The notes under the pieces are model-generated. The model was not told where the DNA came from. It searched no databases and saw only the letters and a list, made by a program, of their open reading frames with translations. This document shows, one piece after another, positions 1-60,845 of a stretch of 64,000 nt of DNA. A program made the position numbers and the translations under genes. Position 1 is the first letter of the stretch, and each line of letters opens with the position of its first letter. The stretch is taken from NCBI GenBank assembly GCA_963710755.1, contig CAVQBK010000003.1, positions 885,211-949,210 on the forward strand, read 5' to 3'. The DNA is from an uncultured bacterium (GTDB lineage: Bacteria > Oederibacteriota > JAAXVQ01 > JAUVAV01).

Positions 1-1869
1 GATAGCACGGGCGCGCGGATCACTTTTTGATCTTTTATATCCACTATATTGTATTTCAATTAAATTATTTCCCGATATCCATTTGGCATTTCCCAGATCA
101 ATTTTATAATCATGCCAACCTTTGTTTATATATTCTTGAGTAATTAATTCATTATTGACATACAATTTTATTTGTTGAGGTTTTATAGGCATGACACGCA
201 TAAACAGATATTTTGGTTTTTTATCTTTTAACGGTATTACTAATGTTGATTCTTTTCCCAATCCCCAAACGAAATCAACTCCATCATCTGCTTTTTCATC
301 GCCGCTCCATCCTTTAGCCAAAAAACTTCTTGCTGTAATTTTACCGAAATCTACCTGTGTACAATTATTATTTTGACGGGCACTTGCCACAGCTAGTTGT
401 ACTGCAAATGCATCAAAAAAAACAGCTTTGGTAGAACTCTTCATTCTTTGCTCAAACCATTTGCGATCAGTAGAATTTAATCGCTTGAAGAATCCCCCTT
501 GGATCCCACCGTCTACAAACCAATATTCCTTGTAACAGCTTTGTTTGATTATTTCTGAAATTATATTTGTATTTGAAATATTCATTACTGGCATATTAAT
601 TTGGCCAGTTTGTTGTTCCAGATAATATTCGAAACAATCTTTCACCCAGCCATCTAAACAAAATATTGCAGATTGCGGATCCGCGTTTTTAAGAACATAC
701 TGTACAGATAAAGCCCATTCTGGTTTTTTTTTGCCAAATAATTTATCATCGGTGATTTTATAATTAAGCAAGGCCGGTAAAAATATCAAAATGCTCAAAG
801 TAATTCCGGTCACAATTTTTAAAATGTTGAACCTTGAAAATTCCCATTTATTATAAATTAATTTCAAGATCATATTTGTTGCCTCAGATATACTACTAGC
901 CATTAAAAGCAGAACAAGTGGTTGCAAAAATATTAATTGGCGAAAATGGAAAAAATATCCGCGCCATTTATCTAAGCTTAAAACAACTCCTCCGGCAAAT
1001 AGGACAGACAAAAATATAAACCAATTATTTATTTTGACTTCTTTATCTTTATTAAATAATCCAAAAATAATTAGTGCACCTGGCCAAACGGAATAGCCAA
1101 CAATCAGGACTTTAATGATCTGATGCCAGCTGACATTAAATGTGCTATGAAACTCGCTATGCGGTTTATAAAATATAGCAGCAGGTAAAAATACCAATAA
1201 TGAAATTAAACAAGAATAAAAAAAATATTTTATCTTATGGAAATCAATATTGTGGGTTACTATTGAATTTCGAATTGACTTTACGCTTAAAATTAATCCA
1301 TGGCACAACAGCACAATCAAGGTATAAAAATGCTGATAACTGGAAACTATAGTTATAATAGAATAAATAATCCAATCTTTTTTTTGATTATTATTTATAG
1401 CTTTGAAAAAAGCCCACCAATGCAAAGTAGTTAAAAAGACAAAAACAGCATAAAATCTTGCTTCCTGGGCATACTGAATTTGCAGCACAGAAATAGCCAT
1501 TAAAATCATTGCAATCCATGCAATGGCTTTTTCAGGTTTGTAAATTTGTCTAGCTAAATAAAATGTTGAAATTACAGCTAAATTGCTAAAAATAAACGCG
1601 TGTAACCTTACCCAGAATTCACTATTGCCAAATTGCAAAAATAAATGCATTATTAAATAATCTAGAGGCAAAGCGGCAGCATGGTACCTGACATTTAATA
1701 ATAGGCCTTTCAAATCCATTTGAGCTACCATCATTTGCCTGATTTCATCGATCCACAAATTTTCTGTTGTTAGCCCATGTAACCGCAGTAAAAACCCTAT
1801 TAGGAAAATGATCATCAAAGGTGTTTTTTCATTTTTAAAGATCTCAGATGTTTTCACTGAATTCTCCAT
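1..1869 (-). CDS. GT39/PMT_2 (ArnT-like) family membrane glycosyltransferase with a C-terminal soluble extension. It is partial and the C-terminus runs off the window start.
   Basis: Hand translation of the minus strand from the ATG at 1869..1867 gives MENSVKTSEIFKNEKTPLMIIFLIGFLLRLHGLTTENLWIDEIRQMMVAQ... It stays open to position 1, and codon checks at 60, 960 and 1440 were consistent. The N-terminal pattern (short cytosolic start, TM helix, DE motif in the first loop, many TM helices) is typical of GT-C/ArnT/PMT-like transferases. It is absent from the ORF track because no stop lies inside the window. The locus is very AT-rich compared with the rest of the window. Confidence 0.6.
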   Translation of the reverse strand, partial: MENSVKTSEIFKNEKTPLMIIFLIGFLLRLHGLTTENLWIDEIRQMMVAQMDLKGLLLNVRYHAAALPLDYLIMHLFLQFGNSEFWVRLHAFIFSNLAVISTFYLARQIYKPEKAIAWIAMILMAISVLQIQYAQEARFYAVFVFLTTLHWWAFFKAINNNQKKDWIIYSIITIVSSYQHFYTLIVLLCHGLILSVKSIRNSIVTHNIDFHKIKYFFYSCLISLLVFLPAAIFYKPHSEFHSTFNVSWHQIIKVLIVGYSVWPGALIIFGLFNKDKEVKINNWFIFLSVLFAGGVVLSLDKWRGYFFHFRQLIFLQPLVLLLMASSISEATNMILKLIYNKWEFSRFNILKIVTGITLSILIFLPALLNYKITDDKLFGKKKPEWALSVQYVLKNADPQSAIFCLDGWVKDCFEYYLEQQTGQINMPVMNISNTNIISEIIKQSCYKEYWFVDGGIQGGFFKRLNSTDRKWFEQRMKSSTKAVFFDAFAVQLAVASARQNNNCTQVDFGKITARSFLAKGWSGDEKADDGVDFVWGLGKESTLVIPLKDKKPKYLFMRVMPIKPQQIKLYVNNELITQEYINKGWHDYKIDLGNAKWISGNNLIEIQYSGYKRSKSDPRARAI

Positions 1870-1913
1870 TATGAAAATATATTTCATTAATCAGTTGTCT
1901 TAATTTTGACATG

Positions 1914-1938
1914 AAACAAACCCTCCTTTGGGTGAGGG
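1914..1938 (-). terminator. Putative intrinsic terminator for the minus-strand secreted-protein gene
   Basis: The inverted repeat CCCTC..GAGGG (1921-1938) reads on the minus strand as ccctcacccaaaggaggg followed by tttgttt. It sits about 160 nt downstream of the stop of the 2101..2967 gene. Confidence 0.4.
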
Positions 1939-2100
1939 ATATTTCATTATTTTCAAATCTAGATATCCCGATAATTGAATGACCAAAATGGAACCTTGGA
2001 ATAAATTATCGGGGACAAACCAAATGGATATAGTTATTCAAACGGGTAGAACGAATTTCGCGAAAGTTTACTTTAATTTAGACAAATTTATAATTGCTTA

Positions 2101-2967
2101 TTATCTGTAATTGACCTGAACAACCATAATATGTTGGTCAGTCTTGAAGTCAACACCATAATGTACAACGTCGAGCTGTAATCTAAGGTTATATGTTCCT
2201 TTGGAACAATCCCGACCGACCAAAATAAAAGCAGTTCCCAAATCATTGGTGCGATGACTTCTTACCGCCGACATATCCGTCCAAGAATTATTTATATACA
2301 ATGTCCATGTGGCAACCGCGTCTGTGGCCTGCAAACTGTTAAAATTACCTTTAGCCATAATTATTAAGTAACCATCATAATCGAGAGTGATGTTTTCATT
2401 AAACAAGGTGATGCTTTGGGTTTGAGTATGGGTTATAGGATTGTGATAAGAATTGTAACTTTTAGTTACGGTATGTGGTTGAATTTTAGTAGTCGTAATT
2501 GCATTATCTTGGATTTTCGCTGTTGTTATTGCGGAATCACTGATTTTTGCGGTGACTACTGAACTATCCACCAGTTTTGCAGTTGATATCGTCCCATCCG
2601 CCACATTCATGGCATAAGCTGCGCTGTCAAGCTTGAGGCGGGGGCTAAGGGGCGTGCCGTCGGTGTTACTGGTTACAGCCAACCAAAGGGGCTGATTGAA
2701 AATGGTAGCATCATTAAAAGGGCCGAGTTCCAGGCTGTAATAGCCATTTTTGACGGCAACGTTATAGGCGGTTGTGGGCCAGACCATTTGACCACCTGTC
2801 TCGGCATTCCAAAGTTCAAACGTCAATCCATAGCTGGGATTATCAGGTATCGGATTTCCGCTCAAATCCGTCAACCGCCCCTGGAAATGGATGGTTTTGG
2901 GAATGTCGGCTTGGGTTATACTAAAGGTTGCAAAGAGGATAAGAAGTAATGATAGTGTTTTTTTCAT
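2101..2967 (-). CDS. Secreted protein of unknown function with heptad-like TAKIxDxAIT repeats
   Basis: 288-aa ORF with signal peptide MKKTLSLLLILFATFSITQA, a conserved N-terminal module (IHFQGRLTDLSGNPIPDNPSYGLTFELWNAETGG...) and a repeat stretch (TAKLVDSSVVTAKISDSAITTAKIQDNAITTTKIQ). A paralogous copy lies immediately upstream. Confidence 0.6.
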   Translation of the reverse strand: MKKTLSLLLILFATFSITQADIPKTIHFQGRLTDLSGNPIPDNPSYGLTFELWNAETGGQMVWPTTAYNVAVKNGYYSLELGPFNDATIFNQPLWLAVTSNTDGTPLSPRLKLDSAAYAMNVADGTISTAKLVDSSVVTAKISDSAITTAKIQDNAITTTKIQPHTVTKSYNSYHNPITHTQTQSITLFNENITLDYDGYLIIMAKGNFNSLQATDAVATWTLYINNSWTDMSAVRSHRTNDLGTAFILVGRDCSKGTYNLRLQLDVVHYGVDFKTDQHIMVVQVNYR

Positions 2968-2996
2968 TAGAAAAATCTCCGTTGGAAATAAAATTC

Positions 2997-3894
2997 TTAC
3001 TTATAAATGGCTTGAATTATCAATTTTGAAAATCTGATTTCAACAGGGTTATTTATTGACGTTGTTTGAACAACACCTTTAATATTTACTGTACCGGGTG
3101 AAAGATCTCTTTCTACCATTAAAGTTGTACCGTCCACATCAGACGTTCGATTAATTTGGCGTTCTGTCCAATCATCAAAGCCATTGTTAATTGACAATTT
3201 CCATGAAATTGTTCCTGCACTGCAACTGTGACTATGAAGTTCAGATCTAAATGTTACTATTAAAGCAGCATTTTTAGTTATATTCAAATTAACATCAAAA
3301 AGATTGTAAGTAGTAGCGGTAGTAATATTATAAGAATTGTTCACATATTCCCATACTTGAGTCGTTGCATTAGTTGCTATTTTATCCATTGTGACGGCAC
3401 CATTATTTATCTTTGCCGTTGTTACTGCATTATCTTGAATTTTCGCTGTTGTTATTGCGGAATCACTGATTTTTGCGGCTGATTACCGAACTATCCACAA
3501 GTTTTGCAGTTGATATCGCCCCATCTGCCACATTTAAGGCATAAGCGGAGCTATCGAGTTTAATACGTGGGCTTAGGGGCGTACCATCAGTATTGCTGGT
3601 TACAGCCAACCAAAGGGGCTGATTGAAAATGGTAGCATCATTAAAAGGCCCGAGTTCCAGGCTGTAATAGCCATTTTTGACGGCAACGTTATAGGCGGTT
3701 GTGGGCCAGACCATTTGACCACCTGTCTCGGCATTCCAAAGTTCAAACGTCAATCCATAGCTGGGATTATCAGGTATCGGATTTCCGCTCAAATCCGTCA
3801 ACCGCCCCTGGAAATGGATGGTTTTGGGAATATCGGCCTGGGCTAAGCTAAAAGTAGCAAAGATCAGCAAGCATAATACAAACAATTTCTTCAT
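2997..3894 (-). pseudogene. Frameshifted tandem paralog of the 2101..2967 secreted protein (ORFs 3463..3894 and 2997..3389)
   Basis: The first 125 aa of ORF 3463..3894 are about 95% identical to the downstream paralog. A 1-bp insertion (gcggCtgattaccgaac versus gcggtgactactgaac) breaks the frame at the repeat stretch. The rest continues as ORF 2997..3389 with a divergent C-terminal domain. Confidence 0.5.
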
Positions 3895-3939
3895 AATTCA
3901 AAGTCTCCCTTTATAAAAATTAAATTCCATACAACAAAA

Positions 3940-4620
3940 GTAAACCTCACGCCAAGTCCGTCTGGAGTTAAACCTAAACCCTTTAAAGACGGAAAGAAAA
4001 ATCTGTCTCACGCCAAGCTCGCCAAGCCGCAAAGAAAGATTAAATCGTTCTGGGGTTAAACCTAAACCCTTTAAAGACGGAAAGAAAGATCTGTCTCACG
4101 CCAAGCACGCCAAGCCGCAAAGAAAGATTAAATCGTTCTGGGGTTAAACCTAAACCCTTTAAAGACGGAAAGAAAGATCTGTCTCACGCCAAGCACGCCA
4201 AGCCGCAAAGAAAGATTAAATCGTTCTGGGGTTAAACCTAAACCCTTTAAAGACGGAAAGAAAGATCTGTCTCACGCCAAGCACGCCAAGCCGCAAAGAA
4301 AGATTAAATCGTTCTGGGGTTAAACCTAAACCCTTTAAAGACGGAAAGAAAGATCTGTCTCACGCCAAGCACGCCAAGCCGCAAAGAAAGATTAAATCGT
4401 TCTGGGGTTAAACCTAAACCCTTTAAAGACGGAAAGAAAGATCTGTCTCACGCCAAGCACGCCAAGCCGCAAAGAAAGATTAAATCGCTCTGGGGTTAAA
4501 TCCAAAACCCCGTAAAAACGGAAACAAAAGATCTGTCTCACGCCAAGCACGCCAAGCCGCAAAGAGAGATAAAATCCTGCTATGGTAAAAACCCTTAGTC
4601 CATTTAAAGTTCTTTTTTTA
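3940..4620. repeat. Tandem array of about 7.5 copies of an 88-bp unit, near-identical, with the last copies degenerate
   Basis: ctgtctcacgccaag recurs at 4003, 4091, 4179, 4267, 4355, 4443 and 4533, so the period is 88 (90 for the last). Each unit is tcacgccaagcacgccaagccgcaaagaaagattaaatcgttctggggttaaacctaaaccctttaaagacggaaagaaagatctg. There are no unique spacers, so this is not CRISPR. Confidence 0.9.
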
Positions 4621-4730
4621 CCTTTGCGCCTTTGCGTGCTTTGCGTGAGACATGTTTTAAAAATATTTTTCACGCCAAGCTCGCCTGCCCTCCGGGCACA
4701 GGCAGCCGCAAATAAAGATCAGATGCTAAA
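4621..4730. repeat. Structured repeat element E1: an inverted copy of the 30-bp array core followed by a conserved tail motif
   Basis: cctttgcgcctttgcgtgctttgcgtgagaca (4622-4653) is the near-reverse-complement of the array core tgtctcacgccaagcacgccaagccgcaaag about 50 nt upstream, predicting a long hairpin. It is followed by gttttaaaaa...cacgccaagctcgcctgccctccgggcacaggcagccg. The same architecture recurs at 6090-6262. Confidence 0.7.
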
Positions 4731-4738
4731 AATATGAA

Positions 4739-5116
4739 CTACAGGCCATTGACTACTCTATGAATACCATCTTTTATTAGATTTTCACCGAAATTTATAA
4801 GTAGACCAAGTTTTTTATTACTTAACCTCAAGTATGTTAATAACTGCTTTTTGTGGACTTGAGCGATTTTTTCGATGGACTTCAATTCAACGATGACTGA
4901 ATTATTGACCATTAAATCCGCTCTAAATCCTTGGTCAAAAATGTGGTTGTTGTACTCAATTGGTATTGCCTTTTGAGTATGAACATCAAAACCAAGATTT
5001 ATAAGTTCATTTGCTAAAATCGTTTCATAAACTGATTCCAACAATCCCGGCCCAATATTTTTATGAATAGAATAAACTTTATCCACTATACTTCTAGCAA
5101 TTTCATTTTCATTCAT
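4739..5116 (-). CDS. GxxExxY family protein (PD-(D/E)XK nuclease-like fold)
   Basis: 125 aa with the signature GPGLLESVYE (GxxExxY). This family is recurrently multi-copy and repeat-associated. The gene overlaps the upstream gene's stop by 1 nt (ATGA). Confidence 0.75.
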   Translation of the reverse strand: MNENEIARSIVDKVYSIHKNIGPGLLESVYETILANELINLGFDVHTQKAIPIEYNNHIFDQGFRADLMVNNSVIVELKSIEKIAQVHKKQLLTYLRLSNKKLGLLINFGENLIKDGIHRVVNGL

Positions 5117-6042
5117 TATTTCGGCTTCTCTTTTGTGCCTTGGCGTCCTGCTTGTGCCCGGGACGGGTAGGCGTGAGACAAGTTCTTATTCAGTTTTGAA
5201 GGAAGATAATTTTTGCCGGTAACTACTTTGTTACCCGTATCTGCCTCAAACACCAAACGAGATTTTTTGGCCACAGCTCCTCCTTTTTTACCGGCATCGG
5301 CATTCTGATCCAATCCCGTTGCATTTGTTCCTTCAGCAATCTGTCTTGTGGAAAGCTCTGCCAGTGCCGTAAAAATTAATTCCGCTTCACTCATATGATC
5401 GCGCAGATTTTGAGATTTTAGGCCCTTCAGTTCTTTGTGTTCCTTTACGGAAAGACCGCTCCATTCCTGGTGGATAATAGTGGTTAAAATTGCAAATTCA
5501 TCCTCTGTGCCAACATCATGGGTTTTCCAATAATCGGTCAGTTTATTCCGGGTTTCCTGACCCATCATACGCTGTTGAATCCACTTATCGCTGCGGCCAT
5601 GTTTTTTCCAATATTCTCTTGCCCGGTCCAGGGAGCGGGCGGGATCGGACATGTCCTGGATACGTTCATAGCCTACCTTAGCCAGCCAGAGTTTGATTGG
5701 TTCCGCTTTTGAGCTTGGCACGGACTGTACAAGCCGAAGAATAGTCTCGGGGGAAGCCACGTCGGTAAGGCGCATCTTCCCGTCATCAGCCGGCATTTTC
5801 AACTGGTGACAATTTGTCACCAGTTGACTTCCTTCTTTTTTCAGCCGTTCTTTCAATTTATTCCAGTATTTTCTGGCCGTTTGATAATCGGGCTGTTGAA
5901 TCAGGACCTGAATAATATCGACGACCGAAAAATACCAAGTTTCAGTTTTTTCATCATAGATCCGCCGGATTTGGCGGTCTTCAAATAGTGCGACGCTTGT
6001 TTTCATCATAAAAACCCTTTTTTCAAGACAGGGGTTTAACAT
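5116..6042 (-). CDS. DinD/RhuM-like protein with an N-terminal Bro-N (KilA-N-like) domain
   Basis: 308 aa. The N-terminus FEDRQIRRIYDEKTETWYFSVVDIIQVL...KLWLAKVG fits the Bro-N pattern. The C-terminal helical region resembles DNA-damage-inducible protein D-type proteins. A partial copy of the flanking repeat motif (cgcctacccgtcccgggcacaagcag, about 5140-5180) lies inside the 3-prime end of the gene. Confidence 0.55.
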   Translation of the reverse strand: MLNPCLEKRVFMMKTSVALFEDRQIRRIYDEKTETWYFSVVDIIQVLIQQPDYQTARKYWNKLKERLKKEGSQLVTNCHQLKMPADDGKMRLTDVASPETILRLVQSVPSSKAEPIKLWLAKVGYERIQDMSDPARSLDRAREYWKKHGRSDKWIQQRMMGQETRNKLTDYWKTHDVGTEDEFAILTTIIHQEWSGLSVKEHKELKGLKSQNLRDHMSEAELIFTALAELSTRQIAEGTNATGLDQNADAGKKGGAVAKKSRLVFEADTGNKVVTGKNYLPSKLNKNLSHAYPSRAQAGRQGTKEKPK

Positions 6043-6059
6043 GTTGAACCCCTACAGCT

Positions 6060-6262
6060 TATCTCACCAATAGCGGCAGAGCCGGAATAAAAAGATGCCT
6101 CACGTCAAGTCCGCCAAGCCGCAAAGAAAGATTGAGATATTAAGAAATAATTTCTTATAAAAAATGTTTTATCTTACCTTTGCGCCTTTGCGTGCTTAGC
6201 GAGAAAGATGTTTTAAAAAAACATCGCGCTAAGACGCCTCCCCTGTGAGCACAAGCAGCCGT
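6060..6262. repeat. Structured repeat element E2: direct core, about 45-nt AT-rich spacer, inverted core, conserved tail
   Basis: cctcacgtcaagtccgccaagccgcaaagaaagat (about 6095-6130) and its inverted partner acctttgcgcctttgcgtgcttagcgagaaagatg (about 6173-6207) are followed by gttttaaaaaaacatcgcgctaagacgcctcccctgtgagcacaagcagccg. It is collinear with E1, and the left arm ttattccggctctgccg (6066-6090) has an inverted copy at 29008-29030. Confidence 0.7.
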
Positions 6263-6265
6263 TTG

Positions 6266-6859
6266 TTATTTAATAATCGCCAGCCGTTTAATTAACTTGG
6301 TGGTTTTGCGCTCATTGCTGGCTTTGATCAGCATCAAATACACGCCGTTGGCCATGTTGGACACATTCCAGTTCCAGATATTTTCGCCGGCGGGCATGCT
6401 GTCCCACTGCTTCTCGATCACCAGGCGATGGCCGGTGGTGTAAATCTTAATCTCTACTTTGGCTGGTTCGGCCAGGTGATAGTGAATGTGGGCTTCCGGG
6501 CCGCGGATGGGGTGGGGAGCCGGGTAGACGTACTGCTTGTCGAGCAATTCGCCGTTGAAGCTGCGAATGGGGGTGGCGGTGACCGTCACCGTGGGAGTGA
6601 CCGTCGGAGTCGGTTTGGCAATAAAATAATTATTGAAAAATCCGGCCTGGGTGGAGGTCTGGTTGCTGTAATTCTGGCCCACGGCTGCTTCGCCCATGGA
6701 ACTGATATGGAGGCGCATGCTGTGATTTTGCGCTTGGCCGGTTTGGGTGTTGCCGGCCGTATTGAACAGATATTCATTCAGCTGGTATTGGCCGGATTGA
6801 GCGGCATGCAGCAGCCCGGCAGTGGAGAGAAATAGAAAGGTAAGGATAAATTTTTTCAT
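6266..6859 (-). CDS. Secreted protein with a C-terminal beta-sandwich sorting-domain-like region (T9SS CTD / FlgD-Ig-like)
   Basis: Signal peptide MKKFILTFLFLSTAGLLHA, a TPTVTPTVTVTATP linker, and a C-terminal roughly 80 aa (...VEIKIYTTGHRLVIEKQWDSMPAGENIWNWNVSNMANGVYLMLIKASNERKTTKLIKRLAIIK) resembling Por/T9SS C-terminal sorting domains. Confidence 0.55.
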   Translation of the reverse strand: MKKFILTFLFLSTAGLLHAAQSGQYQLNEYLFNTAGNTQTGQAQNHSMRLHISSMGEAAVGQNYSNQTSTQAGFFNNYFIAKPTPTVTPTVTVTATPIRSFNGELLDKQYVYPAPHPIRGPEAHIHYHLAEPAKVEIKIYTTGHRLVIEKQWDSMPAGENIWNWNVSNMANGVYLMLIKASNERKTTKLIKRLAIIK

Positions 6860-17632: not shown

Positions 17633-18993
17633 GTTTTGTTCCCTGCGATCGTGATACGAATTTTTTACTGCCGCCATCGTTGAATGATTGGCTCCCAGTC
17701 AATCATTTGGCGCGGTTTGTAACGGAAATTGTCGCCTAACTTGACTTGACGAAGTTAAAAGAATCATATGCGGGGCGGGGATCGTCGGCCTATCATCCTG
17801 AAATGTTGCTGGCTGTGCTGGTGTATGGATATGCCACGGGCCTATTCTCGGGCCGTCAGCTGGAACGCAGCACTTATGATTCGATAGCTTTTCGTTATCT
17901 GGCGGCAAACACCCATCCCGATCATGATACAATAGCCCAATTCCGCAAACGATTTCTCCCCGAATTGGAATCATTATTCGTACAAGTCCTGGTCCTGGCT
18001 CAGGACATGAAACTATTGAAGCTCGGTAAAATCAGTTTGGACGGGAGCAAGGTTCATGCGAATGCATCAAAACATCGTGCCCTTTTCTGGGGACATGCCA
18101 ACAAGATAGAGAAGCAACTCCGGGCGGAAGTGAATCGCCTATTGCAACTGGCCGAAGCAGCCGATGAGGCCGACCAGCCTGACGGGATGAACCTGCCCGA
18201 TGAGCTGGCTCGTCGCGAAGATCGCTTGGCTGCTATTGCCAAAGCCAAAGCAGCCATCAAGCAACGAGCCGTTGAACGTGACCAACAAGCCCAAAAAGAG
18301 TATGAACAGAAGCTGACCGAGCGTCGTGAGCGTGAAAATAAAAGAGGTCAAAAATCCCGCGGTCCAGAACCACAACCGCCAAGCGATAAAGGCCCACAAG
18401 CAAAAGATCAGGTTAACCTGACCGACGGCGAGTCGCGCATCATGCCTGTTTCCGGTGGCGGGTTCGAACAAGCTTATAATGCGCAAGCCGGGGTGGACAT
18501 GGAAACGATGTTGATAGTCACTGAGCATGTTACTCAAGCGACCAATGATAAAGAACAACTTGAGCCTGCACTTGTGCAATTAACCGCTCTTCCAGAAGAG
18601 CTGGGAAAGGCAAAAGCATTGGTGGCAGACAGCGGATACTTTAGCCAAAGCAATGTTAAACTTTGCGAATCCAAGGGGATCAAACCATATATTGCCAACA
18701 GGCGGGAGCAACACTACCCATCGCTAAAAAAACGTTTTTCAGGACCACCGCCGTTGCCTGAACGTGCTGATGCGGTGGAAAGAATGAAGAGGCGGTTGCA
18801 AATGCCAGCTGGCCGAAAACTGTATGCCCGACGTAAAAGCACGGTTGAGCCGGTATTTGGAATTATTAAATCTGCCATGGGCTTTCGCCAGTTCATGCTG
18901 CGAGGTTTGCAAGCTGTCAGCAGCGAATGGACTTTGGTCTGTCTGGCTTGGAACATGAAGCGGCTGCACGGGCTGAAATCATCTCAGGTATAA
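17629..18993 (+). pseudogene. IS1182/IS5-family DDE transposase interrupted by an in-frame TAA at 17737-17739
   Basis: The ATG at 17629 gives MSFVPCDRDTNFLLPPSLNDWLPVNHLARFVTEIVA*. The same frame then continues as LDLTKLKESYAGRGSSAYHPEMLLAVLVYGYATG... (listed ORF 17746..18993, TTG start). Family consensus here is ...EIVEQLDLSEL..., so a Gln codon (CAA) appears mutated to TAA. A C-terminal DDE region (DSGYFSQSNV...) is present. Confidence 0.7.
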
Positions 18994-19163: not shown

Positions 19164-20171
19164 ATGTATAAACCGACCTACCGGATAACGGAAATTTTTC
19201 TGGCTTGTATTGAAAAAATTGCAACCCTGCAAGCAGAGATCAAAAAAAGTCATATCCATCTGCCCCTGTTGCTGCGCTTGCAAAAAGAAGCCTTTAACCG
19301 CAATGTTCATTCTTCAACCTGGATTGAAGGTAATCAACTATCACTCCAACAAGTTGCGGCCTTACAGGAAGAAAAGGCGGTCCGGGCCGACGAACGCCAG
19401 AAAAAAGAAGTAAAGAACTATATTAACGCGCTTCACTGGGTAATAGACCATGCTGCCCAAAAAATTGATGAGCGTGATTTATTGAGATTGCACAAGATGA
19501 TTACCCAGGATCTGGTGCCCGAAGAAAAATGTGGAAAATACCGCAAAGTTCAAAACTATGTTGTTGATGGACAAAAAAAGGTTGTTTACACACCGCCGCG
19601 AGCTTCTTTGGTTCCCAAAGTGATGCATGAATTAATTGAATGGCTTGAGAAAGAAAAAAAGCTGAATGCCGTTATTGCCAGCGCTATTTTTCATCATCAG
19701 TTTGTGACGATACATCCTTTCTCGGATGGGAATGGTAGAGTGGCCCGGGCGGTATCATTATGGATCTTATATCAAAGGAAATATGATCCTGTTCATATCA
19801 TGGCGCTCGATGAATACTTCGCTAATGATCGTGAGGCCTATTACCTGAAAATAACACAAGCCAGAGAACGGGATGAAGATCTTACTTATTGGCTTGATTA
19901 TGTGGCTAAAGGTGTTTTGGAAACTCTGGAAAATACGGTGCGCCGAATTTACCAAATGGCCATATCGCCTAAACAAGATATTTCTCTTTCGGATAAGCAA
20001 GAACTGCTCATTAACTTTATTAAACAGAATGCAGGGTGCAGTTCCAAGGAGATTGGGCTAGCATTAAAGGTTAATCGGGCAAGAGTCAATCAATTGATTA
20101 CACCTTTGGTGAAAGCGGGCATTGTTAGTATGGAAGGAAAAGCAAGAATGACAAAATATTATTTACAGTGA
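19164..20171 (+). CDS. Fic family protein (class II: N-terminal inhibitory helix, Fic core, C-terminal winged-helix domain)
   Basis: Canonical Fic motif HPFSDGNGRVARAV. The inhibitory motif STWIEGN ((S/T)xxxE(G/N)) lies upstream of the core. A C-terminal wHTH-like tail is present (...KEIGLALKVNRARVNQLITPLVKAGIV). Local GC is about 40%, far below the flanks. Confidence 0.85.
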   Translation: MYKPTYRITEIFLACIEKIATLQAEIKKSHIHLPLLLRLQKEAFNRNVHSSTWIEGNQLSLQQVAALQEEKAVRADERQKKEVKNYINALHWVIDHAAQKIDERDLLRLHKMITQDLVPEEKCGKYRKVQNYVVDGQKKVVYTPPRASLVPKVMHELIEWLEKEKKLNAVIASAIFHHQFVTIHPFSDGNGRVARAVSLWILYQRKYDPVHIMALDEYFANDREAYYLKITQARERDEDLTYWLDYVAKGVLETLENTVRRIYQMAISPKQDISLSDKQELLINFIKQNAGCSSKEIGLALKVNRARVNQLITPLVKAGIVSMEGKARMTKYYLQ

Positions 20172-31076: not shown

Positions 31077-31793
31077 TTAGGCAAACTGGTCTTTGCGCTG
31101 GCGTAATTCAGCGAAGGCTTGAGGTGACGGCGCCTGAAGAAAAGGATTGGTAGTTTTTTCCATGGCAATGGTGGTGGGTACGGTAGCGCCTTCCATATGC
31201 AGCCGGTCGGCCAACTGTTGTTGACGTTCCACCAACCGGGCATTGTCAGGATCGCGGCTGATTAAAAATTGATAATTGGCCAAGGTGTACTCGTGGCCAG
31301 GATAGACCAGCGTATGGTCAGGCAAATGGCGAATGAGATTAAGCGATGACCATAACTGGGCGGCATGGCCGTCCAGCAACCGACCGCAACCGCCTACAAA
31401 CAACGTATCGCCCGTGAAGAGCAAACCCGGATGGCCGGGAAGGTAATAACAGACGTGGTCACGGGTATGACCGGGCGTGCCCATTACGTCGATCTGATAA
31501 TTGCCAAAAGCAATGGTGTCGCCATGGGCTACCAGGCGGCTGACATCAGGAATCATGGGACTGCTGGCAATGATGGGGCAGCCAAAGGCCCGCTGCAAGG
31601 TGTGATTGCCGGCAATATGGTCAAAATGATGATGGGTATTCAGGATTAATTTGAGTTTCAGGTGATGGCGGTAAAGCACATGTTCCACCGGCTCCGCGGC
31701 CGTGGGGTCCACCACACAAGCCTCTTGCCCGTTTAAAATCAGATAAATATAATTGTCACCCAAGGTGGTATGCAATACGGTTGGGGTTATCAT
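31077..31793 (-). CDS. gloB: Hydroxyacylglutathione hydrolase-like metallo-beta-lactamase-fold protein (glyoxalase II/GloB type)
   Basis: THHHFDHIAGN (THxHxDH) and a C-terminal ...EKTTNPFLQ, which closely resembles the GloB C-terminal signature. The proposed start is the internal MITPTVLHTTLGDNYIYLI (ATG at 31793), matching the GloB N-terminus (..DNYIW.L). The longest ORF extends to 31862. Confidence 0.75.
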   Translation of the reverse strand: MITPTVLHTTLGDNYIYLILNGQEACVVDPTAAEPVEHVLYRHHLKLKLILNTHHHFDHIAGNHTLQRAFGCPIIASSPMIPDVSRLVAHGDTIAFGNYQIDVMGTPGHTRDHVCYYLPGHPGLLFTGDTLFVGGCGRLLDGHAAQLWSSLNLIRHLPDHTLVYPGHEYTLANYQFLISRDPDNARLVERQQQLADRLHMEGATVPTTIAMEKTTNPFLQAPSPQAFAELRQRKDQFA

Positions 31794-31860
31794 GATTGCA
31801 TTATAGCATAGCCCTGCGGCGGTTAAACTCATTTTTCCCGGCCATGGATGAAAGGAAAGC

Positions 31861-33435
31861 ATGTCCCAATTGTTGACTGTTCATTATGAAATCAGCTGCC
31901 GTCCCGGCGAATCCATTGAACAATTAAGCCAAAGCGTGGCCCTGGAACAAAGTGTGGAAGTTCCGGAAGCCGTGATAACCGGCAAGGCCTTCCAACAACA
32001 GGTCTTGGGCGAAGTGAAGGCTGTGACACCCCTGGATGAGGCTGACCGTTATTTGGTTAAAATTGCTTTTCCTGCAGCCATTATCAGCCAGGCGGTTCCG
32101 CAATTGTTCAACGTGCTTTTTGGAAATATCTCCATTAAAAATAACATTAAACTGGTGGACCTGGAAGCGCCGCCACAACTGATGCAAGTGTTAAAAGGCC
32201 CGCGTTACGGTCTGGACGGGGTGCGCAGCCGCCTTGGTCTGGGAGGCAGGCCTCTGGCCGCATCAGCCTTAAAACCTTTGGGATCTTCGGCTCATGATTT
32301 TGGCATGCTGGCCAAAGCCTTGGCCCTGGGCGGTCTGGATATTATCAAGGATGACCATGGCCTGGCAGATCAGGGATTTTGCCCCTTTGAAGAACGGGTG
32401 CGGATCGTGCAAACCGCGCTCGACCAAGTCAGCCAGCAAACCGGTAAGGCCAGCCTTTATTTTCCCAATCTTATCTGTGCCCGGGAAAAGGTGGATGCGC
32501 AGCTGGAGTTTGTGTTGCGCCACGGCGTTCAGGGCATTTTGATCTCGCCGTTTCTGATGGGTCCGGATATGGTGCGCTATATTCGCGACCATTATCCCTT
32601 GATGATCATGGTTCATCCCGCCTTAACCGGTACGCACTTTAACGATCCTCGTCACGGCATCAAACCGGCAGTGCTGCTGGGCAAGCTCATGCGTCTCTTG
32701 GGCGCGGATATATCGGTGTTTCCCAACAGCGGTGGTCGATTTGGTTTTACGGAACAAGACTGCCAGGATATCAAGCAGGCCTTGCACCAGCCTTGGAAAG
32801 AAATCTTACCCTCGTGGCCTGCCCCGGCAGGAGGCATGACCCTGGATAAAATGGAGACCCTGGTTGCCCAATATGGTCGGGATGCGGTTTACTTGCTCGG
32901 TGGTGCCTTGCTGTTTCCCCAAAAACATGTTCAAGCCAACAGCCGGCGCTTCATGGAGATTATCAGCCACCATTATAAAGAAGAACAGCTTCCCCCAACA
33001 CCCTTGATCTCAGCCTGTGAGATAAAAACCCCGGGGATCCAGGATCAACAGCAGCGCTTATTGCCGTATCAGGGGCAAGGCTGGCAGGGGCGAACCACCC
33101 AACGCTATAAGCAAAGTCAGGAATTGCCCTTCCAAGGCATCAGCCGCACTGAATTGGTGGGATCCCACGGGGAGCAGACTCAATTTGACCTGCGCTATTT
33201 TGAAATTGAAGCCCAAGGGTATTCCAGTTTGGAAAAACATCAGCATACCCATGTTATTATAGGTGTCCGCGGCCAGGGACAATTGCAGATGAACGAAGAC
33301 AGCCTCTCTATTCGTCCTCATGACGTGGCCTACATACCGCCTATGACCGTACATCAGTTCCGCAATCCCTTTGATGATCCCTTTGGTTTTTACTGCATAG
33401 TGGATCACGAGCGTGACCGTCCCCAAGCTCCTTAA
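31861..33435 (+). CDS. RuBisCO-like protein (form IV RLP) fused to a C-terminal cupin domain
   Basis: Residues 1 to about 400 show the RuBisCO large-subunit fold with GGLDIIKDDHG (canonical KDDE(N) becomes KDDH) and downstream ...HPALTG.. and ..NSGGRFG.. motifs, as in RLPs. Residues from about 410 (HQHTHVIIGVRGQGQLQMNEDSLSIRPHDVAYIPPMTVHQFRNP) form a cupin_2-type barrel. Confidence 0.75.
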   Translation: MSQLLTVHYEISCRPGESIEQLSQSVALEQSVEVPEAVITGKAFQQQVLGEVKAVTPLDEADRYLVKIAFPAAIISQAVPQLFNVLFGNISIKNNIKLVDLEAPPQLMQVLKGPRYGLDGVRSRLGLGGRPLAASALKPLGSSAHDFGMLAKALALGGLDIIKDDHGLADQGFCPFEERVRIVQTALDQVSQQTGKASLYFPNLICAREKVDAQLEFVLRHGVQGILISPFLMGPDMVRYIRDHYPLMIMVHPALTGTHFNDPRHGIKPAVLLGKLMRLLGADISVFPNSGGRFGFTEQDCQDIKQALHQPWKEILPSWPAPAGGMTLDKMETLVAQYGRDAVYLLGGALLFPQKHVQANSRRFMEIISHHYKEEQLPPTPLISACEIKTPGIQDQQQRLLPYQGQGWQGRTTQRYKQSQELPFQGISRTELVGSHGEQTQFDLRYFEIEAQGYSSLEKHQHTHVIIGVRGQGQLQMNEDSLSIRPHDVAYIPPMTVHQFRNPFDDPFGFYCIVDHERDRPQAP

Positions 33436-45622: not shown

Positions 45623-47016
<1,394 letters not shown>

Positions 47017-47139
47017 ATTACCCTGAAGCTGGTGCAGGGTGATTGGATAGGGAAGCAATTTTATTATAGTACTTCCTGTTTCTGACCCGGGAGGAATAGG
47101 AAGGTATTTAAGTGGACGAGGGAATGACTGGAGGAAAGG

Positions 47140-58238: not shown

Positions 58239-58502
58239 GGTTTTTTAGCCGGCTTACGGAATGCTGCCGCCAGGAGTCAATCCGCCTCCTGGCGGGCATT
58301 AAGCTTGATGGAAATCCACTTTCCTTCATTGACAACCCTTTAAAAAACTGTAAAATTCTTGTTTATTCTTCCCGGAGGGCGTGGGCAGAGGCCTGCAGGG
58401 GCAAGGCCTATATGGCCATGATCTTGATCAGCTCGGAAATCAACACCGGGCAGTAAGCTGCCCGGTGTTTTATATTTAAAACCAATCATAGAGGTGTATG
58501 CA

Positions 58503-60845
58503 ATGGATCTTTTCGATAAGGCTTTTGAGTTTAATCGCCCCCAAGAGGTGATGGACCTGGGCCTTTATCCCTATTTTCGAATGAACGAGACCGCGGTGGA
58601 TACGACCACCATCATGAATGGCCGCAAAACCGTGATGATCGGATCCAATAATTACCTGGGATTAACCGCGCATCCGGAAGTTAAGGAAGCGGCCATGAAA
58701 GCTGTGGAGAAATACGGTACCGGTTGTACGGGTTCGCGCTTCCTGAACGGTACCATTGATCTGCATGTGGAATTGGAAGAAAAGCTGGCCAAGTTTATGA
58801 AAAAAGAGGCTGCTTTGGTTTATACCACAGGTTTTACCACCAATCAGGGCGTAATCTCCACTTTGGTACAGCGGGGCGATGTGGTCATATCAGACCGTAC
58901 CAACCATGCGTCTATTCTGGACGGATGCCGTCTTTCCTACGGCAAACTGATTAAATTCCGTCATAATGATATGGAGGATCTGGAACGTATTTTAAAAAGC
59001 CTGGAAGGCAAAGATGTGGGGAAATTGATTGTGGTCGATGGCGTATTTTCCATGGAAGGCGATCTGGCTGATCTCCACCATATTGTACCCTTGGCTAAAA
59101 AATACGGCGCCCGGCTTATGGTGGATGAAGCCCATGGCTTGGGAGTGCTGGGTAAACGGGGCCGTGGCACCTGTGAGGAATTGGGGGTGCTGGATCAGGT
59201 GGATCTAGTCATGGGCACCTTCTCTAAGTCTTTTGCCAGTCTGGGTGGTTTTGTGGTAGGGGAAAAGAAAGTCATCAGCTACCTCAAACATACGTCACGA
59301 GCTTTTATCTTTCAAGCTGCACCGCCACCATCGGCTGTGGCGGCGGCCTTGAAGGCTCTGGAAATTCTGCAACGCGAGCCGGAACGGCTGACTAAATTGA
59401 AAGAAAACGTGTCCTACATGCTCAAAGAGATCAAGGCTGCCGGGTTTAGAACCTGGCCGACCGAGTCGGCTATTATTCCCATCATTGTTGGCGATGATCT
59501 CAAAACCTTCCAATTTTCCAAAATGCTCGAGATGGAAGGCGTCTATGTTAATCCTGTAGTCTCGCCCGCCGTACCTGCGGGATTCTCGGCTTTGCGAACT
59601 TCCTATACTGCCAAACATTCCCGGGAAGAGCTGGATTTTGCCTTGGAAAAATTAAAAAAAGTCGGTAAAGCCTTGGGCCTGATTGGGCCCAATGCGCCGG
59701 GCGCACCTGTAGATGTGATCCCGGTCACCAGCAGCAGCAAGGATAAAGAAAAAAACAAACGGTTGCAAAAGCAATTCATCCAATTGCCCTGGACTATTTA
59801 CAAGCAGGATCCTCATTGGGTGCCGCAGGTGATTTCCGATGCAGAACGCATTTTTGACAAAGAGGACAACATTTTTTATAAACACGGTGATGCCCAAGCC
59901 TTTGTGGTTCGACGGGGTGACAAGGTGGTGGGGCGTATTGTGGCGGCTATTGATTATCGAGCCAATGACCAGCTCAAGGAAAAAGCAGGGTTTTTCGGAT
60001 TCTTTGAGGTCGATCATGATGTTAATGCGGCCCAGGCCCTGCTTCAAGCAGCACGAGATTGGCTGACTGAGCGGCATATGACCGTAATGCGAGGGCCCAT
60101 GCCCTTTTCGTCCTTCGACGGGCTGGGTTGCCTGGTAGAAGGCTTTGAGGCTGGGCCGGCCATTATGATGCCCTACAATCCGGCTTATTACGCCGAGTTT
60201 TTTGAAAAATTCGGGTTGGAAAAAAAGCAGGATTTGTATGCCTACTGGATCGATGCGCGCAAGTCCTTGTCGGACCGCTTGGAAAAGCTGGCCATACGCA
60301 CTGAGGAAAAAGAAGGGGTTAAAGTACGTCGTCTGCGGGCCAGTCGTTTTCGCAAGGAAATGGCCAATATTATGGACATCTTTAATGATGCCAACAGTCA
60401 GGACAAACAGTACATTCCCCTAAGCCACAATGACCTGACCTTTTTAATTGCCAAGTTGAAACCAGTGATAGAACCGGAATTGGTGCATTTCGTGGAAGTA
60501 GATAAAAAGCCGGTAGCCTTCTCCGTCATTCTGCCTGATTACAATCAGGTGCTTAAGAAGATCGACGGCAAGATCGGTGTCACCAACTGGCTCAAATCTA
60601 TTTTCTATTCCAAGCAGATTAACAGCGTTCGTTTTGCCATGCTGGGTGTGCGTAAAGCTTATCGACGTCGCGGCTTGGAAACGCTCTTGTATGTAGAATC
60701 TTTTAAAGCAGCCAAGGCCTTGGGCTACACAGGAGGGGAATTGTCCTGGGTACCTCAGGAAGACAAAGTAGTCTCCAAAACCATTGAAAAAAACGGCGGG
60801 CAGCATACCAAAACCTACCGGCTTTATGAAATTTCCATTGCCTGA
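58503..60845 (+). CDS. Two-domain protein: N-terminal PLP-dependent alpha-oxoamine synthase (AONS/serine palmitoyltransferase family) and C-terminal GNAT/FemAB-like (BioF2-like) acyltransferase domain
   Basis: The N-terminal roughly 395 aa carry ..GSNNYLGL.., ..DEAHGLGVLG.. and ..GTFSKSFASLGGFV.. (PLP-Lys). The C-terminal roughly 380 aa resemble BioF2-like/FemAB-like N-acyltransferase domains (..FFGFFEVDHD.., ..FAMLGVRKAYRRRGLETLLY..). An ATG at 58503 is preferred over the upstream GTG. Confidence 0.7.
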   Translation: MDLFDKAFEFNRPQEVMDLGLYPYFRMNETAVDTTTIMNGRKTVMIGSNNYLGLTAHPEVKEAAMKAVEKYGTGCTGSRFLNGTIDLHVELEEKLAKFMKKEAALVYTTGFTTNQGVISTLVQRGDVVISDRTNHASILDGCRLSYGKLIKFRHNDMEDLERILKSLEGKDVGKLIVVDGVFSMEGDLADLHHIVPLAKKYGARLMVDEAHGLGVLGKRGRGTCEELGVLDQVDLVMGTFSKSFASLGGFVVGEKKVISYLKHTSRAFIFQAAPPPSAVAAALKALEILQREPERLTKLKENVSYMLKEIKAAGFRTWPTESAIIPIIVGDDLKTFQFSKMLEMEGVYVNPVVSPAVPAGFSALRTSYTAKHSREELDFALEKLKKVGKALGLIGPNAPGAPVDVIPVTSSSKDKEKNKRLQKQFIQLPWTIYKQDPHWVPQVISDAERIFDKEDNIFYKHGDAQAFVVRRGDKVVGRIVAAIDYRANDQLKEKAGFFGFFEVDHDVNAAQALLQAARDWLTERHMTVMRGPMPFSSFDGLGCLVEGFEAGPAIMMPYNPAYYAEFFEKFGLEKKQDLYAYWIDARKSLSDRLEKLAIRTEEKEGVKVRRLRASRFRKEMANIMDIFNDANSQDKQYIPLSHNDLTFLIAKLKPVIEPELVHFVEVDKKPVAFSVILPDYNQVLKKIDGKIGVTNWLKSIFYSKQINSVRFAMLGVRKAYRRRGLETLLYVESFKAAKALGYTGGELSWVPQEDKVVSKTIEKNGGQHTKTYRLYEISIA

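Follow-up and report, generated by a model that had tools for sequence, protein, structure and literature searches.

The 64,000-nucleotide stretch of DNA analysed in this study (hereafter, the window) derives from an uncultured bacterium of the Oederibacteriota (contig CAVQBK010000003.1, positions 885,211 to 949,210). At 31861..33435 on the forward strand it carries a gene in which a RuBisCO-like protein (RLP) is joined in one reading frame to a cupin. Judging by homology, the 524-aa product is probably a single-chain enzyme combining 5-methylthioribulose-1-phosphate (MTRu-1P) isomerase with 1-methylthioxylulose-5-phosphate (MTXu-5P) methylsulfurylase, encoded by a stand-alone housekeeping gene and serving the conversion of methylthioadenosine (MTA) to methanethiol plus 1-deoxyxylulose-5-phosphate (DXP). 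The gene is a true fusion, and such fusions are real and common in uncultured anaerobes. Both enzymes and their pathway, the MTA-isoprenoid shunt, have been known since 2012; the fusion confirms known biology and does not define a new pathway.

Domain architecture of the fusion gene

The ORF (open reading frame) starts with ATG, preceded by AAAGGAAAG, an AGGA-type ribosome-binding site lying 4-8 nt upstream that was rated good. This start is supported by the homologues, whose alignments begin at residue 1-5 of the protein. Pfam detected RuBisCO_large_N (residues 6-106, 27.6 bits), RuBisCO_large (residues 120-349, 95.8 bits) and Cupin_2 (residues 446-513, 36.8 bits), all above curated cut-offs, and the motif GGLDIIKDDHG occupies residues 157-167. 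An AlphaFold2 (AF2) model had a mean pLDDT of 91 and a pTM of 0.78, with both domains modelled confidently. The original prediction, read from the letters of the window without database searches, had described this ORF as an RLP-cupin fusion divergent from a GloB-type hydrolase, here a 261-aa ORF (31077..31862, reverse strand); both ORFs and the presence of RuBisCO and Cupin_2 domains in the single 524-aa frame were confirmed. A scan for promoters and terminators gave pattern counts no higher than in shuffled controls. The features of the gene, with their evidence, are the following:

31852..31859 (+): Shine-Dalgarno-like AAGGAAAG close to the 5' side of the fusion ATG; read from the sequence
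31861..33435 (+): whole fusion gene, 524 aa, DeepYkr RLP, linker and Rru_A2000-type cupin; ORF, Pfam, full-length homologues, AF2
31861..32976 (+): RuBisCO-like domain, residues 1-372, predicted MTRu-1P 1,3-isomerase; match to 3qfw, Foldseek, scores below MtnW equivalog cut-offs
32347..32358 (+): K163-D164-D165-H166, the counterpart of RuBisCO K201-D202-D203-E204, showing at 204 the His typical of DeepYkr; alignment to spinach rbcL, 3qfw and 2oek, no variation across 120 fusions
32977..33075 (+): inter-domain linker, residues 373-405, variable in sequence and length; conservation profile, AF2 pLDDT
33010..33021 (+): S384-A385-C386-E387, the linker Cys motif of fused proteins; conserved in fusions, absent in split forms
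33076..33432 (+): cupin domain, residues 406-524, predicted MTXu-5P methylsulfurylase; matches to 3kgz, 3ibm and 3jzv
33232..33252 (+): E458-K-H460-Q-H462-T-H464, cupin motif 1, putative metal ligands; motif common to Rru_A2000, 3kgz and 3ibm
33352..33354 (+): H498 in cupin motif 2 (V-H-Q-F-R-N), putative fourth metal ligand; aligned with the His of Rru_A2000 WHQF

Sequence and structure comparisons assigned the N-domain to the DeepYkr (isomerase) clade of RLPs and not to the YkrW/MtnW or Photo clades. Its best match among all PDB sequences was 3qfw (1.9e-70, 241 bits, residues 9-371), which we take to be RLP1 (RPA2169) of Rhodopseudomonas palustris. The MtnW enolases were the second-best PDB matches (134-161 bits, with 2oek at 161), and the Photo-clade RLPs 2qyg and 1ykw scored 104 and 97 bits. 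In a Foldseek search with the AF2 model, 3qfw was again the top structural match, with a target-normalised TM of 0.94 and an rmsd of 2.0 Å. RLP1 of R. palustris is a DeepYkr-clade protein with 5-methylthioribulose-1-phosphate 1,3-isomerase activity in vivo and in vitro (PMC5893883). Together with a neighbour-joining tree of the RLP domain (see below), these scores bear out the original assignment of the N-domain to the isomerase clade.

The N-domain has the fold of the RuBisCO large subunit and lacks its carboxylase residues. Active-site numbering relied on a spinach rbcL sequence in which all 18 canonical residues fall at their canonical numbers; it was aligned with the query, 120 full-length fused homologues, and 3qfw and 2oek as taken from the PDB-search alignments. 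The retained positions include RuBisCO E60 (E29 of the query), N123 (N89), K175 (K138), K201 (K163), D203 (D165) and H294 (H252). K334 is replaced by R293, E204 by H166 (Glu to His), R295 by Pro, H327 by Val and S379 by Ala. The query equals 3qfw at 21 canonical RuBisCO positions, save for conservative changes at T65 and K177. Across the 120 fusions, 18 of the 21 positions are invariant or nearly so, the variable ones being T65, K177 and H327, the last of which is Ile or Val in the homologues. N89, K138, K163, D165, H166, H252 and R293 are the same as in 3qfw and invariant in all 120, and E29 and the Pro and Ala that replace R295 and S379 do not vary either. The equivalents of K175, K201, D203, E204 and H294, singled out for checking in the original prediction, thus show the pattern of the characterised isomerase, with His at 204.

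Identity as a 2,3-diketo-5-methylthiopentyl-1-phosphate enolase (MtnW/YkrW) was considered and rejected. The protein fell short of both MtnW equivalog models of NCBIfam (NF007095, 208 bits against a cut-off of 409; TIGR03332, 161 against 514). The enolases of Bacillus and Geobacillus share the superfamily and a role in methionine salvage with the fusion; however, positions 123 and 204 are occupied by Lys and Glu in the Geobacillus enzyme (2oek), and by Asn and His in the fusion.

The C-domain matched, by sequence, one specific group of cupins, that of Rru_A2000 (3jzv), RPA2170 (3kgz) and the Halorhodospira halophila protein 3ibm. Residues ~396-524 align end to end with these three at 38-43% identity (E-values of 6e-26 for 3kgz, 1.6e-25 for 3ibm and 7.7e-25 for 3jzv), and the next cupin match, TM1459, was found at 1e-4. 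The group signature L-E-[KR]-H-x-H-x-H and the H-Q-F motif are retained, as are Cys512 (the conserved Cys in F-G-F-x-C) and the C-terminal R-D-x-P-Q-x-P. While the three relatives are free proteins of ~150-165 aa, the cupin of the fusion is tethered N-terminally to the RLP. Acireductone dioxygenase (ARD/MtnD) was rejected as an identity for the cupin: no such Pfam match was obtained, and it is the Rru_A2000 group that the domain matches specifically.

Residues E458, H460, H462, H464 and H498 are invariant in the 120 fusions. In the alignment with TM1459, whose Mn ligands we take to be H52, H54, H58 and H92, three His stand opposite E458, H460 and H464, and a fourth stands opposite H498. By this alignment E458, H460, H464 and H498 are the putative ligands of a divalent metal in the cupin domain. 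The Rru_A2000-type cupin and the metal-ligand motif anticipated in the original prediction were therefore recovered, with the Rru_A2000 group as the sole strong match and E-x-H-x-H-x-H...H invariant.

Fused relatives, split operons and the linker

Database searches identified 120 proteins of 511-591 aa that span 95-100% of the query at 42-50% identity and carry both RuBisCO_large and Cupin_2. Counts of the fused form are lower bounds: it is represented by no fewer than 120 protein clusters and by 51 distinct loci in genomes. The window's own protein belongs to a 90%-identity cluster represented by a 53-aa fragment; hence no self-match was obtained and the best match was at 50%. Named sources of the fused proteins include FCPU426, Nitrospirae, Candidatus Magnetobacterium/Magnetoovum, Scalindua, Planctomycetaceae, Chitinispirillaceae, Fibrobacter and Geothermobacter ehrlichii. 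Their database names are generic ("cupin domain-containing protein", "ribulose-bisphosphate carboxylase large chain"), and a few JGI entries are named "S-methyl-5-thioribulose 1-phosphate isomerase". Full-text literature searching found no description of an RLP-cupin fusion, a passing mention in Warlick 2012 or Erb 2012 being possible. The rarity implied by the original prediction does not hold, since fused proteins are abundant in public sequence data.

A search of species-representative genomes returned 577 relatives. The best 80 of these, together with seven earlier loci (87 loci in all, forming 78 distinct groups) and the window, were compared after re-calling of ORFs. One ORF covered both domains in 58 loci (51 distinct groups), and the RLP and cupin were separate genes in 24. 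In 23 of these 24 split loci the cupin lies directly downstream of the RLP, with a gap of 0-102 nt or a short overlap; in the remaining one (L081) it lies ~2 kb upstream. Five loci encode the RLP with no cupin, and one further locus was left unclassified, its gene being truncated where the contig stops. Split loci occur in Meiothermus, Nitrococcus, Acetobacteraceae, Rhodoplanes, Xanthobacteraceae, Balneolaceae, Chitinophagales and Chloroflexia, Alphaproteobacteria thus being included. For some of the same organisms, North et al. reported shunt homologues "in a similar gene organization" (PMC4958253).

Because distant relatives carry the RLP and the cupin as adjacent genes in the same order, the fused architecture is a genuine Rosetta-stone case. 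The pairing to which it points has already been shown experimentally in Rhodospirillum rubrum and R. palustris (PMC5893883, PMC4958253), and this part of the original prediction stands.

An artefactual origin of the fusion, through frameshift, misassembly or read-through of two adjacent genes, is conceivable where the split RLP-then-cupin operons have gaps of just 0-6 nt, so that one sequencing error could mimic a fusion. However, the single ORF recurs in 58 loci from independent assemblies and many phyla, and the fused forms share a linker of ~30 residues with its own conserved motif, which the split forms do not have. These comparative data refute the artefact, the chance of which we regard as negligible.

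In the neighbour-joining tree of the RLP domain (built without bootstrap), the fused proteins form one large clade, within which a few members have secondarily split or lost a partner. Proteins from split operons, 3qfw among them, fall outside it; with MtnW as the outgroup, the query groups with 3qfw and its operon-type relatives. The simplest history compatible with this topology would be a single early fusion of an RLP-then-cupin operon, followed by wide dispersal. L060, although fused, is placed with the split forms and may represent an independent fusion.

Two loci of Chloroflexia within the fused clade (L063, 9962-11615, and L072, 9962-11603) have separate RLP and cupin ORFs that overlap by 101 and 68 nt, respectively. 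A gene that has split again, a frameshift (programmed or accidental) or an error in sequencing could each explain this arrangement. The five RLP-only proteins (L054, L059, L067, L083 and L085) are at most 50% identical to the N-domain of the query and are cupin-free within 10 kb. Evidently, the isomerase can be maintained where no methylsulfurylase gene lies beside it, and one may ask what becomes of MTXu-5P in these hosts.

The linker (residues ~373-405) is variable, with the exception of S-[AS]-C-[ED] at residues 384-387. Its Cys is found in 112 of the 120 database fusions and 46 of the 51 distinct fused loci. Split RLPs lack it at their C-termini and split cupins at their N-termini, and the RLP-only proteins inside the fused clade do not have it either; the conserved S-A-C-E Cys thus distinguishes the tethered cupin from its free counterparts. 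In the AF2 model, residues 384-396 are the sole low-confidence segment (pLDDT <50), with C386 at its start and ~22 residues before the cupin barrel.

The S-A-C-E motif may act as a tethered thiol or as a docking motif. A tethered Cys near the barrel is suggestive because the cupin reaction needs a thiol nucleophile. In one specific version, C386 would be a built-in swinging thiol that attacks the methylthio sulfur of MTXu-5P and carries Cys-S-S-CH3 until this is resolved by a cellular reductant. We consider this version quite unlikely; if it were true, the methylsulfurylase step would be freed from glutathione in lineages not making it. The conserved Cys in any case bears on which thiol these organisms use. 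The idea that it is indispensable for catalysis was given less weight: 5 of the 51 fused lineages, among them three of four FCPU426 loci, do not have the Cys, which is therefore not strictly essential.

Predicted function, alternatives and significance

On the proposed scheme, the RLP domain would bind MTRu-1P by means of a carbamylated Lys163 and Mg2+ and isomerise it by 1,3-proton transfer to MTXu-5P. The cupin domain would then hold MTXu-5P on a divalent metal bound by E458, H460, H464 and H498, where a thiol would attack the methylthio sulfur, DXP leaving as the enolate along with a methyl disulfide. Reduction of the disulfide would release methanethiol for the resynthesis of methionine. 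Fusion of an RLP-then-cupin operon would fix the two activities at a 1:1 ratio and keep them together. Substrates, metal and thiol in this scheme are inferred, as would be any channelling between the domains.

The closest characterised counterparts, Rru_A1998 of R. rubrum and RPA2169 of R. palustris, share with the fusion the fold, the clade and an Rru_A2000-type cupin partner, as well as Asn 123, Lys 175 and 201, Asp 203, His 204, His 294 and Arg 334 (RuBisCO numbering). In contrast to these proteins, the RLP domain of the fusion belongs to a separate sub-clade at ~35% identity and is covalently joined to the cupin through the ~30-residue linker, and the hosts are uncultured, mostly anaerobic and non-proteobacterial. 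The original prediction described the shunt as anaerobic. Its anaerobic operation is established, and the pathway is oxygen-independent; it is not confined to anaerobic conditions, however, as it runs both aerobically and anaerobically in R. rubrum (PMC5893883). A precedent for consecutive methionine-salvage enzymes on one chain is given by MtnBD and MtnAK of Tetrahymena thermophila (PMC3698126), although these involve different enzymes, folds and branch, and serve the oxygen-dependent canonical route in a eukaryote.

Several observations weigh against this assignment. The function of every fused member is predicted from homology to characterised enzymes, and identity to these is ~35% in the RLP domain and 38-43% in the cupin domain, so that substrate drift is possible. 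Many of the host lineages are, to our knowledge, not known to produce glutathione. No mtnP, mtnK, mtnN or mtnA was found in the 64-kb window, where 37 of the 57 candidate ORFs, including all of mtnA or mtnP size, were compared with Pfam; likewise, no mtnP, mtnN/mtnK or mtnA was found within 10 kb of the RLP gene, fused or not, in the 78 loci. Rfam at the gathering threshold, applied to the window and to six homologous loci together with the upstream regions, detected no SAM-type or other riboswitch. A single tRNA was the sole Rfam match in this set, and the window itself contains neither a tRNA nor any other Rfam element. The missing mtnP and mtnA say little, since in R. rubrum, too, these genes (Rru_A0360/0361) are unlinked to the RLP (PMC4958253). 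The thiol used by the R. rubrum methylsulfurylase is glutathione (PMC4334135).

The main alternative is that the fused clade, with the same folds and chemistry, acts on a different sugar-phosphate and yields products other than DXP and methanethiol. Candidate substrates could be a 5-deoxyribulose-1-phosphate derivative from the salvage of 5'-deoxyadenosine, or a different thioether sugar. Such a shift would be in keeping with the position of the fused clade apart from the characterised split enzymes (~35-43% identical), with the lack of linkage to salvage genes and with hosts that are presumably, for the most part, anaerobes rich in radical-SAM enzymes. However, the catalytic and ligand residues compared are those of the R. 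palustris and R. rubrum proteins. Moreover, methylthio removal is the sole known role of this cupin, and its retention argues that the product of the RLP keeps the thioether; were the substrate a 5-deoxy sugar, DXP would form directly and the cupin would be superfluous. We therefore consider a different substrate rather unlikely and retain the assignment to the shunt.

The shunt has so far been described as a feature of "some proteobacteria". Its signature pair was found here in fused form in Planctomycetota (the anammox Scalindua and the Brocadiaceae included), in magnetotactic Nitrospirota, and in Fibrobacterota, FCPU426, KSB1, Chloroflexota, Sumerlaeota and Desulfuromonas. Such a distribution suggests that oxygen-independent salvage of MTA to methanethiol and DXP may be widespread in anaerobes. 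In genome papers on Scalindua and magnetotactic Nitrospirota, the gene is listed as a form IV RuBisCO whose function is given as unknown or as "sulfur", and the cupin goes unmentioned (PMC3655542, PMC10278575). The "type IV RuBisCO" genes of these groups thereby gain a concrete, testable function. A compact enzyme with two activities would also be of interest for an engineered Dxs-independent route to DXP.

Neighbouring genes and the rest of the window

The fusion gene is flanked by genes that were annotated as context only:

31077..31793 (-): GloB (hydroxyacylglutathione hydrolase), divergent, probable start M24; TIGR03413
33711..35865 (+): SQR (type III), DsrC/TusE and DsrE2; NCBIfam, Pfam

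The divergent 261-aa protein matched the GloB equivalog TIGR03413 with 251 bits (cut-off 200.8) and has an HAGH_C domain. As listed (31077..31862), its ORF overlaps the start codon of the fusion by 2 nt. The family model matches from residue 33 onward and an in-frame ATG for M24 lies at 31793 on the reverse strand; the true start is thus probably M24, which would leave a divergent intergenic gap of ~67 bp. On the other side, a gap of 275 nt separates the fusion gene from SQR, which matched NF049943 ("type III SQR, selenoprotein subtype") with 626 bits. Although that model is defined by selenoproteins, the SQR ORF has no in-frame TGA and presumably encodes a Cys-containing version of the family.

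To assess conservation of the neighbourhood, the 4,276 ORFs reaching 80 aa or more in the 87 loci (up to 10 kb on each side of the fusion or RLP gene) and in the window were clustered all against all. No neighbour family recurred in more than 6 of the 78 distinct groups. Recurring neighbours were antisense shadow ORFs and housekeeping genes whose synteny is lineage-specific (response regulator, ABC ATPase, KAS III, PurA, SecDF and TypA). BLASTP revealed no convincing homologue of GloB, SQR, DsrC or DsrE2 within 10 kb in the other 87 loci (78 groups), nor of the nucleotidyltransferase and the 93-aa protein of the window; the sole neighbour match covered 59 residues (E 2.4e-4). The Pfam neighbourhoods of four homologues agree with the absence of a link to GloB or sulfur genes.

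The original prediction had linked GloB and the downstream sulfane-sulfur genes to the fusion. In its fullest form, this would make GloB, the fusion and SQR/DsrC/DsrE2 one module, with GloB processing the glutathione adduct and the relay proteins handling the released sulfur. The genes are physically adjacent, with a GloB-fusion gap of at most 67 bp, and the R. rubrum hydroxyacylglutathione hydrolase Rru_A2371 is up 2.74-fold on MTA, which its authors attributed to pyruvate metabolism (PMC4334135). However, the arrangement fails the conservation test, being unique to the window among the loci compared. In addition, the cupin product in R. rubrum is the mixed disulfide of glutathione and methylthiol, GS-SCH3 (PMC4334135, PMC5893883, PMC13474568). 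As a disulfide and not a thioester, it is no substrate for glyoxalase II, and GloB hydrolyses thioesters. The 275-nt gap before SQR likewise speaks against a module, and SQR, DsrC and DsrE2 handle sulfane sulfur from sulfide, not methanethiol. A common module is thus very improbable. The adjacency of GloB and the sulfur genes is probably coincidental, and neither of the proposed links survived the comparison.

The sulfur-oxidation phenotypes reported for Photo-clade RLPs (Chlorobaculum tepidum; RLP2 of R. palustris) echo the adjoining SQR, DsrC and DsrE2. However, these RLPs match the N-domain much more weakly (97-104 bits), the adjacency to sulfur genes seen here is not conserved, and RLP2 of R. 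palustris takes no part in MTA metabolism (PMC5893883).

The window as a whole is ordinary chromosome. Its contents include a polysaccharide-synthesis cluster, AcpS, MazG, Maf, PpiD, mreBCD-PBP2-rodA and RNase G, among others. Apart from an identical database protein, the RNase G matched proteins at 89% and 77% identity and then a group at 58-66%, some of them labelled candidate division FCPU426, which points to a host related to FCPU426. A 351-aa ORF on the reverse strand (46003-47058), Pfam-negative, is the antisense shadow of mreB (45973-47016, forward strand, 347 aa); longest-ORF calls are misleading in this genome. In a 783-aa protein (58494-60845), a class I/II aminotransferase domain covers just residues 47-387, and the C-terminal ~400 residues have no Pfam match at 1e-5. 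The left end of the window (1-6500), which includes the gene of a BRO-N domain protein (5116-6042), has a much lower G+C content (0.32-0.43) than the remainder (~0.52). The glycosyltransferase/polysaccharide cluster is interrupted by genes for a DDE transposase (17746-18993) and for a Fic/DOC protein (19164-20171). The low-G+C left end and the transposase/Fic segment are probably mobile or horizontally acquired insertions.

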